Assembly: GCA_947626735.1 (NCBI GenBank)
Contig: CANQTK010000005.1
Coordinates: 178-64,177 of the forward strand
Length of the DNA stretch: 64,000 nt
Source of the DNA: an uncultured Clostridia bacterium
GTDB taxonomy: Bacteria; Bacillota; Clostridia; TANB77; CAG-508
Reading direction: 5' to 3'
Shown: positions 2,209 to 44,441 of the stretch, piece after piece
How the letters are laid out: each line of letters starts with the position of its first letter
How positions within the stretch are numbered: the first letter of the stretch is position 1
Notes under the pieces: model-generated
What the model was told of the DNA's origin: nothing
Databases searched by the model: none
Seen by the model: only the letters and a program-made list of their open reading frames with translations
Made by a program: the position numbers and the translations under genes

Positions 2209-3102
2209 CTAAACATTTAATGCTCCTGACATAATTCTATATTTAGTTTCATGATTCCATATACTTTGTAACTCATCAAAATGATTATCAGGGTTTACTA
2301 ATAATATAGCTAATTCATCTAATTCTTTATACTCTTCTTCTGTTAATTCAAATTTTTTATCTTGTATATATTTTGGTAAATGTAAAAATATAATTTCATC
2401 ATTCATTAAAACATGAAAATCATAGAATAATCCTCTTAAAGATGCTTTTAATCCTAATGTAGGGGGATTAGAAGAGTAATATATTTCTTCTGCTTTATAC
2501 TTATTATTTCTCATACCTAAATAAGCTTCTGCCCCAAAAATAAATTTATCCCTTGGTATATCATTTAAGTCAAATCCCATTCTATGATTTGGACAATGTT
2601 CATCTGCATCAACTAATATCCATCTGTTTTTTATTTCATCAAAGTATTCTGTAATCCAATGATCATAATTTACTCCATCATATTCAATATACGGTGCAAA
2701 TCCACTCCTTACTCTTGCTGAATATCCTTTTGCTTTTAAAGTAGCAGCCAATAAAATTGCTTCTCCCCTACAAGTAATATGGATTTTATCTTCTGCCTTT
2801 CTATTTTTGTAATATTTGTTATCTTTTCTTAATAATTCACTAATCATACTAATAGCCGTTGGAAATAAATCGTCTTCATAGTCTAGTCTTGTAATTGGCA
2901 CTTTTGTCATATCTCCCCAAAAACAGTTTTCTTGTTTCCTAATATTTACATTATCAAATGCAAAAGGATGAATAATTTGCTTTCTTTGTAATAAACATAG
3001 TTCATTAATATCATCCGTTAAATTTTTCATAAAGTCTTTATATAAGCCTAAATCTGTATATAAACTAGTTTGTTTATAAAAATCTAATATTTTCTTTTCC
3101 AT
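2209..3102 (-). CDS. transglutaminase-like domain protein
   Basis: 297 aa. Cys...His...Asp arrangement (HITCRGEAILLA ... DHWITEYF ... WILVDAD) typical of the transglutaminase-like cysteine protease core. Confidence 0.6.
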   Translation of the reverse strand: MEKKILDFYKQTSLYTDLGLYKDFMKNLTDDINELCLLQRKQIIHPFAFDNVNIRKQENCFWGDMTKVPITRLDYEDDLFPTAISMISELLRKDNKYYKNRKAEDKIHITCRGEAILLAATLKAKGYSARVRSGFAPYIEYDGVNYDHWITEYFDEIKNRWILVDADEHCPNHRMGFDLNDIPRDKFIFGAEAYLGMRNNKYKAEEIYYSSNPPTLGLKASLRGLFYDFHVLMNDEIIFLHLPKYIQDKKFELTEEEYKELDELAILLVNPDNHFDELQSIWNHETKYRIMSGALNV

Positions 3103-3103
3103 A

Positions 3104-3664
3104 TTAATACCACTCCATAATATCTTTTAATTTTTTTCTTAATCTTTGTCTCGGACTTTCATCTGAATATCCTATTGAAATTGCACAAATCAACTCCATT
3201 TCATCTTTCTTTACTAAATGTGCAATTTTATCTTGTGTGTATACAATGTCTCTTATCCATAAAGAACCTAATCCAAGGTCTGTAGCTTTTAAGCAAATAT
3301 GTTCTATTGCCGCACCTATTGATAATGAATCTCCTATTATCCAATTCCTATCTTTTGGTCTAAAAACTAGAATTAAAATTGGTGCTTGTTTGATAATAAG
3401 TGCTGTTTCTTTAACACTACTTTTTGTATTATCTAGTTGTTTTTCCATATCTATTTTGAATTGTTTCTCTTGTTCTAGCATAATATCTGCAATTTCATTT
3501 TTAACCTTGTTTTTGACAATTACAAATTTCCAAGGTTGTCTATTTTTCGCAGATGGTGCAAACCTTGCACAATTTATCAATTCTTCTATTGTTTCATTTG
3601 TTATATCAATATTTTTATATTTTCTAATACTTTTTCTATTTTTTATAACGGTATCTAATTCCAT
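3104..3664 (-). CDS. nitroreductase family protein
   Basis: 186 aa. RKSIRKY ... ARFAPSAKNRQPWKFVIV signature of FMN nitroreductases. Confidence 0.85.
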   Translation of the reverse strand: MELDTVIKNRKSIRKYKNIDITNETIEELINCARFAPSAKNRQPWKFVIVKNKVKNEIADIMLEQEKQFKIDMEKQLDNTKSSVKETALIIKQAPILILVFRPKDRNWIIGDSLSIGAAIEHICLKATDLGLGSLWIRDIVYTQDKIAHLVKKDEMELICAISIGYSDESPRQRLRKKLKDIMEWY

Positions 3665-3787
3665 ATTTTTTATCCTCCAATATTATTCTCTTACTTCTCT
3701 TCTACTCTATCCATTATAATTCTCCTAAACTTATTTGCTATTAAAATCATATCTAAAATGTAACAAAAAAGATAAGCAAAATAGAAA

Positions 3788-4594
3788 TCAATTTTGCTTA
3801 TCTTTTATAGGAATATATATATAGCAGTTATTATTTTCATAAAGTTCAATTTCAGGTTTATCTAATATTTCATAATTTGTTGACTTTATCCATTGATTGT
3901 ATACAAAATTATAAACATTTACAATATCTTTTTGTTTTTCATTTCCAACTTCAAAAATTGCATATTTACCTTTATCTATTGTGATTGTTTCCGTATTATC
4001 AATTTTCAATTCACTACCCACATAATATTTATATCCATTATCTTCGCAAATAGATATACCATACATTCCAACTTTAATAAATTTATCACGGATACCATTA
4101 CTTTCTATCTTGTTATATAATTCTCTTATTTTAAATAATAAATCTTCATGTATTGTGGCACTTATTCCAAAACAATATAATTTTTTTTCTTGTATTTCTT
4201 TTACTTCATAATTGAATTCTTCATACATATCATTCTCATTATGAAATTCAATAATAGGAAATACCTTATAGGTTTTTAAACTATTTCTACATTCAGTTGG
4301 TGTCATATTAAAATATTTTTTAAAAGCTCTTGAAAATGACATAGATGAATCATAGTTATATTTGATTGCCAAATCAATTATTTTAATATCTGTTGTCTTT
4401 AATTCTTCAAAAGCTCTACTTAATCTTCTTTTTCTGATATATTCTGATAGAGACATATTAGTTAAAAAAGTAAAAATTCGTTGCAAATTATATTCCGATA
4501 TGCCAACTATTTTTGCTAGTTCTTTATATTCAATATTTTCAGTTAAATGTTCTTCTATATATTTTATCATCTGATTTAAATGTTCAAAGTTCAT
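3788..4594 (-). CDS. AraC family transcriptional regulator with GyrI-like effector domain
   Basis: 268 aa. N-terminal AraC HTH (SEYIRKRRLSRAFEEL ... YDSSMSFSRAFKKYFNMTPTE) and a C-terminal small-molecule-binding-like domain. Confidence 0.85.
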   Translation of the reverse strand: MNFEHLNQMIKYIEEHLTENIEYKELAKIVGISEYNLQRIFTFLTNMSLSEYIRKRRLSRAFEELKTTDIKIIDLAIKYNYDSSMSFSRAFKKYFNMTPTECRNSLKTYKVFPIIEFHNENDMYEEFNYEVKEIQEKKLYCFGISATIHEDLLFKIRELYNKIESNGIRDKFIKVGMYGISICEDNGYKYYVGSELKIDNTETITIDKGKYAIFEVGNEKQKDIVNVYNFVYNQWIKSTNYEILDKPEIELYENNNCYIYIPIKDKQN

Positions 4595-11376: not shown

Positions 11377-11501
11377 TAAAAATAAATTTTTCTATGCAAA
11401 AATACTTGATGTAAATATAAAAACAGAGCAGAATGTAAAGATACATTTTACTCTGTTTTTTACTTGTAAAAAATATACTATAAACTGATAAGATAGAAAA
11501 T

Positions 11502-19493: not shown

Positions 19494-21728
19494 ATGGATT
19501 TTAAACAATGGGAAGGTTTTAACAAACTTGGAGAATGGACAAAAGAAATTGATGTTAGAGGCTTTATTCAAGCAAATTATACACCTTATGAGGGAGATGA
19601 TTCTTTCTTACAAGGACCAACCGAAAAGACAAAAAAATTATGGGATGAAGTATTAAAGCTTTATAAAAAAGAAAGAGAAAAAGGTGTACTTGATGTGGAC
19701 ACTAAAACCCCTTCTGGCGTAAACCGCTATGAAGCAGGTTATATTGACAAAGATTTGGAGCAAATTGTAGGGCTTCAAACAGATGCCCCTTTAAAGAGAG
19801 CAATTATGCCAAATGGTGGTATTAAAATTGTAGAAAAATCTTGTGAATCTTATGGTTATAAAGTAGACGAAGAAACAGATTACATTTATAACAATTTAAG
19901 AAGAACACACAATGATGGTGTTTTTGCAGTATACACCCCAGATATTAGAGCTGCTAGAAGTTCTCACTTAATTACAGGTCTTCCTGATGGTTATGGACGT
20001 GGAAGAATTATTGGTGATTATAGACGTGTTGCTTTATATGGTGTAGATGCTTTAATTGCTGAGAAGAAACAAGAATTAGAAATATTAGATGTCGATGAAT
20101 TCACGGAAAGTGTGATTCGTGAGCGTGAAGAAATTCATGACCAAATTGCTGCTTTAGAGGACTTAAAGAAAATGGCTGCAAAATATGGTTTTGATATTTC
20201 TGTTCCTGCTGCTAATGCAAAAGAAGCTATTCAATGGTTATACTTTGGTTATTTAGCTGCAACCAAGGACCAAAATGGTGCTGCTATGAGTATTGGTAGA
20301 ACTTCTACTTTCTTAGATATTTATATGGAAAGAGATTTCAAAAACGGTACTTTAACCGAAGAAGAAGCACAAGAATTAATGGATCATTTTGTTATGAAAT
20401 TACGTATGATTCGTTTCCTTCGTGCACCAGAATATAATGAATTATTTAGTGGAGACCCTGTTTGGGTAACCGAAAGTATTGGTGGTATGGGCGTTGATGG
20501 TAGAACCTTAGTGACGAAAAACTCTTACCGAGTTCTTCATACTTTAATGAACTTAGGACCTGCTCCAGAACCAAACTTAACAGTTCTATGGTCAAATAAT
20601 TTACCAGAAGGTTTCAAAAAATATACGGCAAAAATTTCCGTAAAAACATCTTCTATTCAATATGAAAATGATGATTTAATGAGAATTACTTTAGGAGATG
20701 ATTATGGTATTGCTTGCTGTGTTTCTGCTATGAAGATTGGTAAACAAATGCAATTCTTTGGAGCAAGAGCAAATCTTGCAAAAACTTTACTTTATGCAAT
20801 TAATGGTGGTAGAGACGAAAATAGTGGTAAACAAATTACACCAAAATTTGAAGCAATTACTTCTGAATATTTAGACTATGATGAAGTTATGGCTAAATTT
20901 GATAACATGATGGACTATGTTGCAAAAATTTATATTAAAGCCTTAAATGCGATTCATTATATGCATGATAAATATTCTTATGAAGCCTTAGAAATGGCCC
21001 TTCATGATAAAGAAATTTTAAGAACTATGGCATGTGGAATTGCAGGACTTTCTGTTGTTGCTGATTCTTTATCTGCAATTAAATATGCAAAAGTAAAAGT
21101 CATTCGTGATGAAACTGGTTTAGCAGTAGACTATGAAATTGAAGGAGATTTCCCAAAATACGGAAATGATGATGATAGAGTTGACCAAATTGCAGTTGAT
21201 GTTGTAAAAACTTTCTTAAGAAAATTACAAAAACATCAAACTTACAGAAATTCAAAACATACCCTTTCTGTTCTTACTATTACTTCTAATGTTGTGTATG
21301 GAAAAGCAACAGGAAATACACCAGACGGAAGACGTGCAGGCGTTCCATTTGGACCAGGTGCAAACCCATTACATGGTAGAGATACCAATGGTGCTGTAGC
21401 TGTTATGAACACCATTGCGAAACTTCCTTATGAATATTCAGAAGATGGTATTTCTTATACTTTCTCTATTACACCAGGAACGTTAGGAAAAGAATTAGAT
21501 ACACAAGTTACAAACTTAGTTAGTCTTCTTGATGGATATTTCAAACAAACAGGACATCATATTAATGTCAATGTATTTGATAGAGCATTACTAGAAGATG
21601 CTATGGAACATCCTGAAAAATACCCACAATTAACCATTCGTGTATCTGGCTATGCTGTAAACTTCATTAAATTAACAAGAGAACAACAATTAGATGTAAT
21701 TAACAGAACCATTCACGAGAAATTCTAA
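19494..21728 (+). CDS. pflB: formate C-acetyltransferase (pyruvate formate-lyase)
   Basis: 744 aa. Active-site ACCVSAM and C-terminal glycyl-radical motif [11 protein letters not shown]. Confidence 0.97.
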
Positions 21729-21979: not shown

Positions 21980-22594
21980 CTACCAACTTCTCATTTCCAT
22001 CACTTTTCCTTCTTTTCTTTCTTCGTATATTTTCTTTTGTATCTCTTCGTCAGCATTTGCAAATAAGTCATGTGTTAGCCTATAATCGTGAACTACAAAC
22101 ATCTTTTGTAAAGTTGCTAATCTTTCAGATACTTCTTCCGCTTGGCGAATGCTCTTTTGTTTATCAAAATCAATTCTTGATAATGTTTCGTTAGAAACCC
22201 ATTGTTTCAGTGTTCGCTTCGCCCGAGAAATATTTTGTTTTACTTCTTTTTTTGAATGTTCTTTCACTTTATATAGTGTTAAATTTTCAAATACTTCAAA
22301 TATTTGACGGCGGTAAGTTTTCATTCTTTCATCGTCTGGAAGTAAGAAGCATTCAAAGTCAAAAGTAAAACTAATGTCTACTAATCTTTTTATCGTTTCA
22401 CAGCCATAGCATAAACGATAACCTTCATAGGATTTATACCCAATTCCTTGGATTTGCATCACTAACATTGATAAGGTTGACCAGCCTTGATAGCAACTAT
22501 ACTCGCTCATTTCCCGTATTTCTTCTTCCGTATATTCTTTTTTTAGAACAGGTACATAACCTACTAAATTCTGATTTTCTTTTAACCAAATCAT
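21980..22594 (-). CDS. hypothetical protein (inserted between pflB and pflA)
   Basis: 204-aa ORF with a GGAGG RBS and no recognisable domain. Contains two in-frame CGG codons (22223-22225, 22514-22516). Confidence 0.5.
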   Translation of the reverse strand: MIWLKENQNLVGYVPVLKKEYTEEEIREMSEYSCYQGWSTLSMLVMQIQGIGYKSYEGYRLCYGCETIKRLVDISFTFDFECFLLPDDERMKTYRRQIFEVFENLTLYKVKEHSKKEVKQNISRAKRTLKQWVSNETLSRIDFDKQKSIRQAEEVSERLATLQKMFVVHDYRLTHDLFANADEEIQKKIYEERKEGKVMEMRSW

Positions 22595-22782: not shown

Positions 22783-22811
22783 TTGATTTTTATAGTTTAA
22801 CATGTTATACT
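22783..22811 (+). promoter_or_regulatory. candidate promoter of the small hydrophobic-peptide mRNA
   Basis: TTGATT (22783-22788), 17 nt, TGtTATACT extended -10 (22803-22811). Confidence 0.45.
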
Positions 22812-22894
22812 AACTAACATAGGAAATGAGAATAAGCAGATGTGGTTTGCCACTTTTAGTTCACAACCTTGGTTGTGAGAATGGAGGTGGTGCT

Positions 22895-23005
22895 ATGATA
22901 GAAGTTGTTTTATTAGAAATAATATACTTACTTTTATTTGGCTTAATTGTCGAAACTATTATAGTATTTGCCTTAATTATACAGATTATAATTTTAAGCA
23001 AATAG
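22895..23005 (+). CDS. 36-aa hydrophobic peptide, candidate type I toxin
   Basis: GGAGG at 22883-22887, 7 nt before the ATG. MIEVVLLEIIYLLLFGLIVETIIVFALIIQIIILSK. Not in the ORF track because it is shorter than 60 aa. An 8-bp hairpin TCACAACC/GGTTGTGA lies just 5' of the RBS. Confidence 0.45.
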   Translation: MIEVVLLEIIYLLLFGLIVETIIVFALIIQIIILSK

Positions 23006-23009
23006 ACAA

Positions 23010-23097
23010 TAAAAAAACACATCTGTAACTTGACCGGTTCAATGTGTTTTTTTACATAACTAACTGGCAAACCACGTTTGTGGTTTCTCCATTTCCT
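23010..23097 (-). ncRNA. candidate antisense sRNA (putative type I antitoxin)
   Basis: Bounded by a consensus minus-strand promoter and the bidirectional terminator. Its 5' end (ATAGGAAATGGAGAAACCAC..GTGGTTTGCCAG) mirrors the 5' leader of the peptide mRNA. Confidence 0.3.
23011..23053. terminator. bidirectional terminator shared by the convergent peptide mRNA and candidate sRNA
   Basis: AAAAAAACACAT ... ATGTGTTTTTTT with an inner TTGACCGGTTCAA palindrome. Confidence 0.6.
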
Positions 23098-23103
23098 ATC
23101 TTT

Positions 23104-23132
23104 ATTATATACAACTATTTAAAAAATGTCAA
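23104..23132 (-). promoter_or_regulatory. consensus sigma-A promoter on the minus strand
   Basis: Minus strand reads TTGACA (23132-23127), 17 nt, TATAAT (23109-23104). It points away from pflA toward the peptide gene. Confidence 0.55.
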
Positions 23133-23155: not shown

Positions 23156-23864
23156 ATGAACGGAAAAATTCATTCTTTTGAAAGTTTAGGTGCAGTAGAT
23201 GGTCCAGGTATTCGCTTTGTTATTTTTATGCAAGGTTGTGCTTTGCAATGTCAATACTGCCAAAATAGAGATACTTGGGATTTACATGGCGGAACAGAAT
23301 ATTCTGCAGATGAAGTCTTAGAAAGAATTTTAAAATATAAAAATTATATTATGCCTCACCGGAGGCGTTACCATTAGTGGTGGCGAACCTCTTTTACAAG
23401 TTCCATTTTTAATAGAATTATTTGCGAAATTAAAAGAGCATGGTATTCATACTTGCATTGATACTTCTGGAAGTGTCAATATTACTGAAGATATGAAAAA
23501 ATTAATTGATTTAACAGATTTATTTTTACTTGATATTAAATGTATCAATGATGAAAAATGTATTCAATTAACGGGAGTTTCAAACAAAAAAGAGCTTGCT
23601 TTTGCCAGATATTTAAGTGAAATTCATAAACCTATGTGGATTAGGCAAGTGTTAGTTCCTACCATTACAGACGATGAGAAGGATTTATTACAATTAAAAG
23701 ATTTTATATCTAGTTTAAATAGTGTAGAAAAGGTAGAAATTCTTCCTTACCATGATTTAGGTAAATTCAAATGGGAAAATTTGGGATGTTCCTATCCTTT
23801 AGATGGGCTTAGAACCGCCTCACAAGAAGATGTAAAAAGAGCAAAAGAACTATTAGGAATTTAA
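23156..23864 (+). pseudogene. pflA: pyruvate formate-lyase activating enzyme, frame broken at CGG 23360-23362
   Basis: MNGKIHSFESLGAVDGPGIRFVIFMQGCALQCQYCQNRDTW (CxxxCxxC) then ..IMPH|GGVTISGGEPLLQ..., continuing into ORF 23493..23864. AAGGAG RBS before ATG 23156. Confidence 0.9.
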
Positions 23865-44231: not shown

Positions 44232-44319
44232 CTAGTATGTCCTTTTTTTCTTTTATTGTATGCATTTTATCATAGTTTTTTAAGAAATACAAGAATACTA
44301 GCAAAAAAAAGAAAGAAAG

Positions 44320-44348
44320 GCAGACCACTTAGATGATATGTGGTCTGC
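44320..44348 (-). terminator. intrinsic terminator after the small membrane-protein gene
   Basis: GCAGACCAC-loop-GTGGTCTGC followed by a T-rich run on the minus strand. Confidence 0.6.
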
Positions 44349-44441
44349 ACTTTATCTATATAAAAAACAATATATTGTTTGTACTATATCTTATGCTACT
44401 TGTTTTTATTTGTTACTTTATGCTACTTATTATTTTGTTTT

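Follow-up and report, generated by a model that had tools for sequence, protein, structure and literature searches.

A conserved intergenic module in uncultured gut Clostridia with the predicted architecture of a type I toxin–antitoxin-like system

The stretch of DNA considered here, referred to as the window, comprises 64,000 nucleotides (nt) of contig CANQTK010000005.1 (positions 178 to 64,177) from an uncultured Clostridia bacterium, with a G+C content of 29.6%. Between pflB (19494..21728) and a frameshifted pflA gene (from 23156), a module of about 330 bp is located, which occurs once in the 64 kb. It consists of a gene for a hydrophobic peptide of 36 amino acids (aa), a candidate toxin, and a convergent gene for a predicted small RNA (sRNA), a candidate antitoxin (Table 1). 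The arms of the terminator between them are bordered by an A-run on one side and a T-run on the other. In the first-pass annotation of the region, a type I toxin–antitoxin (TA) module had been proposed, and all of its elements were recovered where it had placed them: the 36-codon open reading frame (ORF) with a GGAGG ribosome-binding site (RBS) at 7-nt spacing, the TTGATT-17-TGtTATACT promoter on the plus strand (9 of 12 consensus matches, with TG extension), the perfect TTGACA-17-TATAAT promoter on the minus strand (12 of 12), the bidirectional terminator with its 13-nt perfectly complementary arms, and the inverted leader copies. The 8-bp hairpin described in front of the RBS is also present; the pairing drawn for it would leave a loop of only two nucleotides, but the hairpin itself is the one described. 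The sRNA promoter is the sole perfect match in the 2 kb scanned, and about 0.08 such sites are expected by chance on both strands of the window, as estimated from base composition.

Table 1. Positions and properties of the predicted elements of the module (window coordinates).
Feature	Position	Strand	Remarks
Promoter of the toxin mRNA	22783..22811	+	-35 TTGATT 22783-22788, 17-nt spacer, TG-extended -10 TATACT 22806-22811
Predicted toxin mRNA, ~237 nt	22819..23056	+	from conserved start ATAGGAAATG to T-run of terminator; predicted ends
Leader 'twin' segment ATAGGAAATGAGAATAAGCAGATGTGGTTTGCCA	22819..22852	+	inverted copy at 23062-23099
Stem-loop sequestering the Shine-Dalgarno sequence	22843..22891	+	averaged base-pair probabilities, compensatory changes
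Apical hairpin within this stem-loop	22860-22879	+	folds as 8 bp with CUUG loop
Shine-Dalgarno sequence GGAGG	22883-22887	+	7 nt 5' of ATG
Gene for 36-aa hydrophobic peptide, candidate toxin	22895..23005 (including stop)	+	translation MIEVVLLEIIYLLLFGLIVETIIVFALIIQIIILSK
Stem-loop in 3' end of ORF, around stop codon	22965..23004	+	pairing probability over homologues
Bidirectional intrinsic terminator, common to both transcripts	23010..23054	both	13-nt perfect arms 23010-23022 / 23042-23054
Predicted convergent sRNA, candidate antitoxin, ~92 nt	23008..23099	-	predicted ends
Promoter of the sRNA	23104..23132	-	-35 TTGACA 23132-23127, 17-nt spacer, -10 TATAAT 23109-23104

Searches with the 59-aa ORF that gene callers predict at this place (22826..23005) matched 149 protein clusters; nearly all of these come from gut metagenomes, and no cluster bears a functional name. 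When one genome per species was scanned, 125 loci were confirmed. All of them lie in metagenome-assembled genomes or scaffolds whose labels refer to uncultured gut Firmicutes of low GC content, mainly Clostridia; the labels include Clostridium sp. CAG:567, CAG:440, and CAG:245, and the bins originate from rabbit, goat, sheep, chicken, and human gut. Another 71 metagenome contigs, many of them labelled human gut, match the exact-junction pattern. For comparison, 72 complete copies of the module from other genomes were aligned, and the homologues mentioned below are these copies unless stated otherwise. The conserved span extends from transcript start to transcript start, about 280 nt with a mean column identity of 80%, and both promoters, both transcribed regions, and the terminator are kept as one unit. 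Since the complete arrangement is maintained base for base in 72 aligned homologous modules, it exceeds what could be obtained by chance.

The surroundings of the module are highly diverse. Among 83 copies, about 80 different pairs of flanking ORFs were encountered. Recurrent neighbours look like housekeeping genes (uvrC-like, folD-like, sigma-factor-like, and spoIIID-like, as recognized by reading their sequences), and the spoIIID neighbour was confirmed by Pfam at one site. In the window the module lies directly upstream of pflA, which could indicate a cis-regulatory leader or attenuator of this gene; a conserved pflA leader with an ORF not preserved in relatives had also been named in the first-pass annotation as a finding that would refute its TA interpretation. 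Yet the ORF is conserved, none of the other loci examined adjoins pflA, and the terminator as well as a promoter firing away from pflA lie in between. With unrelated gene pairs flanking the module at so many sites, a pflA-specific leader is ruled out, and hardly any credence is left for regulation of pflA in this manner.

The 36 codons of the peptide gene are free of frameshifts and stop codons in all 72 copies, whereas the flanking non-coding parts are rich in insertions and deletions. Column entropies at the three codon positions (11.8/5.9/14.5) are distributed as in a hydrophobic helix with exchanges among I, L, V, and F. The pairwise ratio of non-synonymous to synonymous substitutions (dN/dS; Nei-Gojobori method, NG86) is about 0.29, a value that is probably overestimated because RNA structure holds some of the synonymous sites. 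A single helix spanning residues 2-35 was predicted by AlphaFold2 with a predicted local distance difference test score (pLDDT) of 97.9. The grand average of hydropathy (GRAVY) is 2.36 and the net charge -2; hydrophobicity is kept across the homologues, E3, E20, and T21 hardly vary, and 62 of the 72 copies have E8. With fewer than 60 aa, its hydrophobicity, and a predicted transmembrane helix, the peptide corresponds to what is expected of a type I toxin. Peptides of this kind are designated class A.

The 59-aa ORF that ends at the same stop codon was rejected as the true gene. Its AUG is found at nt 8 of the transcript, preceded by AGGA. Of the 72 loci, only 26 have the upstream extension of 23 codons open in the frame of the peptide gene, and in most of the others a stop is located just before the Shine-Dalgarno sequence (SD). 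The matches to the 59-aa ORF share the core GGGA-MIEAVLLEIIYLLLFGLVVETIIVFALIILVIILSK, but their N-terminal parts change reading frame between subfamilies (MRISRCGLPLL, MWLPLL, MKIADVVATF, MWFATF), from which it follows that conservation upstream concerns the nucleotide sequence, not a protein. By these sequence criteria, purifying selection acts on the 36-codon ORF, not on the longer annotated one. A systematic error of annotation becomes apparent here, in that gene callers overlook the gene altogether or predict the unconserved 59-aa ORF. The same AUG in the sRNA would open an ORF of 10 codons, MEKPQTWFAS. Within the peptide gene, an internal 30-nt tandem repeat was noticed (22935-22962 / 22965-22992, 75% identity, FGLIVETII / FALIIQIII), suggesting that the peptide may have grown by a ten-codon duplication.

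A small, conserved, helical, and hydrophobic product would also be compatible with an exported peptide under antisense control, comparable to bacteriocins, modulins, or pheromones. No leader or cleavage motif was recognized, however, no linked genes for export, immunity, or processing were seen in the about 80 contexts, and no match to a bacteriocin or pheromone family was obtained. The peptide is, moreover, uniformly hydrophobic instead of amphipathic, and export is considered very improbable.

The structure of the toxin mRNA was derived from base-pair probabilities averaged over the homologues and from explicit pair counts; these replaced RNAalifold, which gave only structure fragments on raw MAFFT alignments. 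The mRNA folds with a z-score of -4.3 relative to shuffled sequences. Its leader contains the twin segment as the most conserved part, which is mostly unpaired in the consensus fold. Further downstream, GUGGUUUGCCACUUUU (22843-22857) pairs with GGAGGUGGU-GCUAU (22883-22897 region) around the apical hairpin. Pairing of GCCACUUUU (22849-22857) with GGAGGUGGU (22883-22891), by which the SD is buried, reaches probabilities of 0.85-0.97 over the homologues, and pairing of GUGGU with GCUAU covers the start codon. The outer helix sequestering the SD is 97.9% paired across homologues. In the apical hairpin, compensatory changes were detected in six of six pairs; none of 500 shuffles reached the observed covariation, and controls with a slid register collapsed. 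One subfamily with a different leader sequesters the SD in another register, CCUUC:GGAGG. With SD and start codon both enclosed in the 5' stem-loop, translation of the free mRNA is predicted to be intrinsically poor.

A second stem is found at the 3' end of the ORF, where the stop codon is enclosed by pairing of UAUUUGC(C)UUA with UAAGCAAAUA; its core UAUUUGC/GCAAAUA (22965-22971 with 22998-23004) shows pairing probabilities up to 0.96. The invariance of the rare codon GCC26, of AGC35, AAA36, and the stop codon TAG is explained by this stem, and one compensatory change from U-A to G-C occurs in it in the sister modules described below. Covariation tested for all columns against each other was dominated by the phylogenetic signal of the subfamilies and was uninformative beyond the apical hairpin. 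The first ~30 nt of the mRNA are unpaired in the consensus fold, with only weak alternative pairings to the anti-SD strand, to an ORF element UUUGCCUUA (noted by reading the sequence), and to the 5' arm of the terminator. Regarding the latter, leader sequence CAGAUGUGGUUU (22837-22848) is complementary to AAAACACAUCUG (23014-23025) in the terminator arm of the same mRNA over 12 nt (92%), and among the homologues this 5' arm varies far less than the 3' arm. A role of the pairing CAGAUGUG:CACAUCUG as antiterminator or long-range lock was rejected, as two loci with a different terminator stem and an unchanged leader, L041 and L056, provided no covariation support.

In the predicted sRNA, the 5' tail AUAGGAAAUGGAG is followed by the hairpin AAACCAC/GUGGUUU (23069-23086) and, after a variable linker, by the terminator; the fold has a z-score of -3.6. 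Double changes from C-G to U-A were found in the hairpin in three loci, and compensatory changes affect six of 11 stem pairs of the terminator. A covariance model of the sRNA, R1, scored the copy in the window with 107 bits and detected a copy beside almost every toxin ORF in a set of 84 loci. Promoter, hairpin, and terminator are conserved in 77 loci, as would be expected at the sequence level of a gene for an antisense RNA. Two further, weak matches to R1 in the window, at 44311-44413 (+) and 11394-11467 (+), with 23 and 22.6 bits and E-values of about 0.05, are probably terminator-like hairpins.

The shared bidirectional terminator gives the two RNAs perfectly complementary 3' ends of ~49 nt. 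The predicted duplex of 49 bp is perfect (-75 kcal/mol), and co-folding yields -134 kcal/mol versus -87 for the two separate folds, a gain of about 47 kcal/mol. An additional site was predicted in most loci: the 5' strand of the sRNA, GGAAAUGGAGAAACCACA, can pair with its own 3' strand as well as with the anti-SD strand of the mRNA, UGUGGUUUGCCACUUUU, the leader side of this putative pairing being the element UGUGGUUUGCCAC. This match of 15-17 nt is imperfect and its energy is not better than that of shuffled sequences, and the terminator overlap is therefore treated as the sole secure contact.

The two promoters of the module differ consistently in quality. Toxin promoters of 76 homologous loci show a mean of 8.95 out of 12 consensus matches; they belong to several unrelated -35/-10 types and are located at a fixed distance from the transcript start. 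The mean for sRNA promoters in 77 loci is 11.43, and 33 of them are perfect. In 70 of 72 paired loci the sRNA promoter is nearer to the consensus than the toxin promoter, and it is worse in none. Together with burial of the SD, a near-consensus antisense promoter indicates a strong pressure to keep translation off.

Modules encoding another peptide are built on the same chassis. In the loci retrieved, R1 revealed extra sRNA copies, each convergent to a leader of the toxin type, an SD region, and a terminator nearly identical to those in the window (L012:2315-2745 and 3389-3828; L013:3851-4291, minus strand; L062:882-1316; L075:2490-2929, minus strand). The peptide specified there, MVKVILFFIISLMLSLTLNVALTAVLYKNWVDKQLHK, is designated class B. 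It follows the pattern M(FM)VKVILFFIISLMLSLTLNVALTAVLYKNWVDKQLHK, with MVEFLLFLIKGFMISLTINVALLRIIYIIWTDKQI as a more distant variant, and combines a transmembrane helix with a charged tail, ...LYKNWVDKQLHK, unlike class A. With these features it has the textbook shape of a type I toxin. Class B comprises 56 protein clusters of its own, none functionally named, and no family match was obtained for its peptides in database searches. It is unrelated to class A; a comparison of both by hhalign yielded no detectable homology (probability 2%). 

Copy number and integrity of the module vary. Several genomes hold two copies on different contigs, some two or three, and many copies are located at contig ends. 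In L012 three modules are arranged in tandem in the order B-A-B (2300-3830), and in L027 and L030 (2925-4130) two modules are placed on either side of a minus-strand gene of 165 aa. Decayed versions are also present. In L015 (3112-3175) a deletion between GATGTG-like repeats removed half of the sRNA and the terminator, in L047, L069, and L073 the 5' part of the toxin unit upstream of the ORF is replaced while the sRNA is intact, and orphan sRNA-like remnants reside in L019 (1415-1504) and L075 (2296-2385). Tandem arrays of diverged paralogues and decayed copies are a behaviour expected of TA loci.

Upstream of the module, recurring sequences were noted in several otherwise unrelated contexts. 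One of about 40 nt, CAAATATCAATCAATTTATTAAAGTATATCATA..., is located ~90-130 nt in front of the toxin transcript start in L018, L020, L021, L032, L049, L061, and L066, and the class-B copies in L012 and L013 are likewise preceded by it. A second one, TAATTCGATTTATTG...TTTAACATAAA...TCAAGTAATTT, was found in L006, L008, L019, and L060. They may represent further conserved elements or remnants.

Comparison of the two leaders with each other revealed a peculiar relationship. Within each locus, the first ~10 nt of both RNAs and the anti-SD element GUGG(U)nGCC stay identical. The U-runs of the two RNAs agree in length in 69 of 71 loci (3/3 in 55, 2/2 in eight, 4/4 in six). At position 10 both carry G in 63 loci and A in six, and three loci are discordant, while the 14 nt between the matching parts of the twins are systematically different. 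The twin leaders evolve in concert. The description of the sRNA unit as a truncated twin of the toxin unit, given in the first-pass annotation, thus holds as an observation.

One possible role, which is regarded as rather doubtful, is that the sRNA, in addition to being an antisense antitoxin, imitates the structure of the leader of the toxin mRNA. Strands might then be swapped between the hairpin of the sRNA and that sequestering the SD, in the way a kissing complex passes into an extended duplex, or the sRNA might be a decoy for a factor recognizing the common 5' leader, such as the 30S subunit, an RNase, or a helicase. If so, one RNA chassis serving two unrelated peptides would amount to a portable 'toxin-expression cassette'.

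The inverted arrangement of the twins may also permit rare DNA inversion, by which the strong and the weak promoter would be swapped. In L085:730-960 (ENA ERZ27266617 k141_165515), a consensus promoter of the sRNA type with the leader ATAGGAAATGGAGAAACCACAAACGTGGTTTGCCA is fused to the hairpin, SD, and ORF of the toxin unit, at the same spoIIID flank at which L068 (3100-3290) has the sRNA promoter. This single contig looks like the product of an inversion between the twin repeats. A second inversion candidate (P0196, L086) was dismissed when its leader proved normal. In one metagenome collection scanned for junctions, the inverted form was found 0 times and the normal form 71 times, and frequent inversion was rejected.

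These data also bear on the question of whether the whole unit could be a mobile repeat resembling miniature inverted-repeat transposable elements, or an invertible segment, in which the twins are recombination sites and ORF and RNA signals incidental. Inverted copies evolving in concert at both ends, the many contexts, and the opposite orientation of the internal segment in L085 relative to L068 are consistent with such an element. For incidental contents, however, purifying selection on an ORF free of insertions and deletions is not expected, nor are promoters outside the repeats whose position and quality are likewise conserved. The twins have kept a systematic difference over the 14 nt that separate their matching parts, no transposase was present among the nearest flanking ORFs, and no target-site duplication was noted on reading the flanks, where no systematic search was made. 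The junction counts do not favour an invertible segment either. Overall, a repeat of this kind appears quite improbable.

Known type I systems were considered next to the module at the level of sequence and of architecture. For 26 members of the family, no Pfam or NCBIfam match was obtained at E-values up to 10, and searches of Pfam, NCBIfam, PADLOC, PHROGs, and PDB sequences with the window peptide, members of its family, and class-B peptides remained without a match, in line with the statement of the first-pass annotation that the peptide fits no named toxin family. No match in Rfam was obtained at gathering thresholds; the best matches below them were driven by the terminator (OrzO-P, 26.7 bits versus a threshold of 60; BsrG, 10.8 versus 55). 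The peptide strings were not found in a full-text literature search, and none of the papers retrieved on type I TA systems of Clostridia seemed, judged by title or abstract, to deal with this family.

Architecturally, the par locus of pAD1 (fst/RNA I–RNA II, Enterococcus faecalis) and the Fst/Ldr loci are close. They have convergent promoters and a common bidirectional terminator, the complementary stem-loops of which provide the first contact between the RNAs in par. The SD is covered by a stem-loop in the 5' part of the mRNA, the peptide is small and spans the membrane, and the antitoxin RNA has a length of ~65-100 nt (PMC7472228); the same is present or predicted here. The differences are equally clear. 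Fst/Ldr toxins possess a PXXXG motif and a charged tail, whereas the window peptide has neither and contains no proline at all. In par, the direct repeats DRa and DRb render RNA II complementary to the translation-initiation region, whereas the copies here are inverted, so that the 5' ends of both RNAs are identical; this departure from the par paradigm had been recognized in the first-pass annotation. Homology to Fst/Ldr toxins and direct repeats to the initiation region, two defining features of par-like loci, are both missing.

Convergent RNAs with a short 3' overlap, as predicted here, are also known from SprA1/SprA1AS (PepA1) of Staphylococcus aureus. SprA1AS acts via its non-overlapping 5' domain, which is complementary to the RBS and the start codon, and is a precedent for a functional 5' region in a 3'-overlapping sRNA. 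In contrast, the 5' domain of the window sRNA is not complementary to RBS or start codon, and the toxin is unrelated. Convergent, 3'-overlapping RNAs and small membrane toxins, again as predicted for the window, are characteristic of txpA/RatA, bsrG/SR4, bsrE/SR5, and yonT/SR6 of Bacillus subtilis and of CD2517.1/RCd8-type loci of Clostridioides difficile (PMC6563280). There, long overlaps extend into the coding region or the 3' untranslated region, most loci belong to prophages or prophage-like elements, and the toxins have C-termini that are charged or rich in lysine, charged C-termini being common though not universal among type I toxins (PMC6563280). The module differs by an overlap limited to the 49-nt terminator, a class-A peptide without tail, and chromosomal intergenic sites, and no sequence similarity of its peptide to the toxins of B. 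subtilis and C. difficile was found in database searches.

Taken together, the module is probably an autonomous type I TA-like system of the par (fst/RNA II) architectural type. Coding selection, conservation as a unit, sequestration of the SD, the about 80 contexts, and the asymmetry of the promoters lend support at the sequence level to the type I interpretation that the first-pass annotation had advanced; each of its predictions examined at this level was borne out. Combined with class B, the modules would constitute a new family, or small superfamily with at least two peptide classes, of par-like architecture. Its mode of action can be envisaged as follows. A moderately strong promoter would produce the mRNA of ~237 nt for the very hydrophobic single-helix peptide, and the near-consensus promoter on the opposite strand would provide the convergent sRNA of ~92 nt in excess. 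The sRNA would dock on the mRNA via the complementary terminator stem-loops and zip into the 49-bp duplex, possibly with the second, imperfect contact between GGAAAUGGAGAAACCACA and the leader strand UGUGGUUUGCCACUUUU. The duplex could mark the mRNA for double-strand-specific cleavage or keep it untranslatable. If supply of the sRNA stops, the peptide would be made and inserted into the membrane, leading to growth arrest.

Several observations weigh against this interpretation. The usual charged C-terminus of type I toxins is missing in class A, which ends with ...IILSK, and the peptide is acidic (E3, E8, E20) without a positive residue at the N-terminus. Complementarity between sRNA and mRNA outside the terminator was not above that of shuffled sRNAs (duplexfold, z about 0). 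The best second contact covers the anti-SD strand and not the RBS, and taken alone it would open the SD rather than block it. The overlaps in txpA/RatA and bsrG/SR4 are longer than the terminator-only overlap of the module. L049 (3109-3197) contains an intact ORF followed by different sequence in place of the sRNA, on a contig that ends 89 nt past the ORF. The module had no match in phage and plasmid collections (blastn), and among 2.9 million viral contigs of IMG/VR only one module locus was detected, at a contig end; because of this near absence, a role in stabilizing mobile elements is not supported. Finally, all hosts are uncultured, and transcription of both units, pairing of the two RNAs in the cell with its consequences, and toxicity of the peptide are inferred from sequence.

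Some of these points would suit a different product: a small membrane protein without toxicity, for instance one that modulates a membrane complex or takes part in a stress response, with its expression adjusted by an antisense RNA encoded in cis. An acidic peptide lacking the typical tail would be in accordance with it, as would the position of the module between housekeeping genes of the chromosome and its near absence from phages and plasmids. A subunit depending on a partner, however, should keep its neighbourhood instead of occupying about 80 contexts, and tandem arrays, decayed copies, and orphan sRNAs are typical of selfish TA loci. Furthermore, SD burial and the near-consensus antisense promoter (70 of 72 loci) indicate pressure against translation, and the sister modules on the same chassis encode a peptide of canonical toxin shape. 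A non-toxic function is considered unlikely, and a type I TA-like system is preferred.

Type I TA systems are hard to find, because their toxins are tiny and their antitoxins are RNAs, and the known families of Firmicutes come from few cultured genera. The family described here, unannotated so far, is widespread in uncultured low-GC Clostridia from the gut of humans, rabbits, ruminants, and chickens; an alignment and a covariance model are at hand for it, and what is predicted for each of the two RNAs is clear. For the type I class, an acidic peptide without tail, twin leaders evolving in concert, and one chassis for two unrelated peptides are unusual. Should toxicity and control by RNA be true, the module would be a compact, portable, RNA-regulated kill switch for Clostridia, and it could be a test case for antitoxin RNAs arising by duplication of a toxin leader.

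The genes next to the module in the window deserve a short description. Between pflB and the module, an ORF of 204 aa is located on the minus strand (21980-22594), for which no match in Pfam, NCBIfam, or PADLOC and only weak PHROG matches were obtained. It is known only from contigs of the same organism and, together with the module, breaks the usual adjacency of pflB and pflA. As it is absent from all other loci, it was rejected as a component of the system. The pflA gene (23156-23864) is frameshifted near 23345-23380, yielding an N-terminal radical-SAM piece of 73 aa and a piece of 123 aa, and its downstream frame reads ...TGGVTISGGEPLLQ. An identical split is present in the independent metagenome contig L002; it is therefore probably real and not an error specific to the window.

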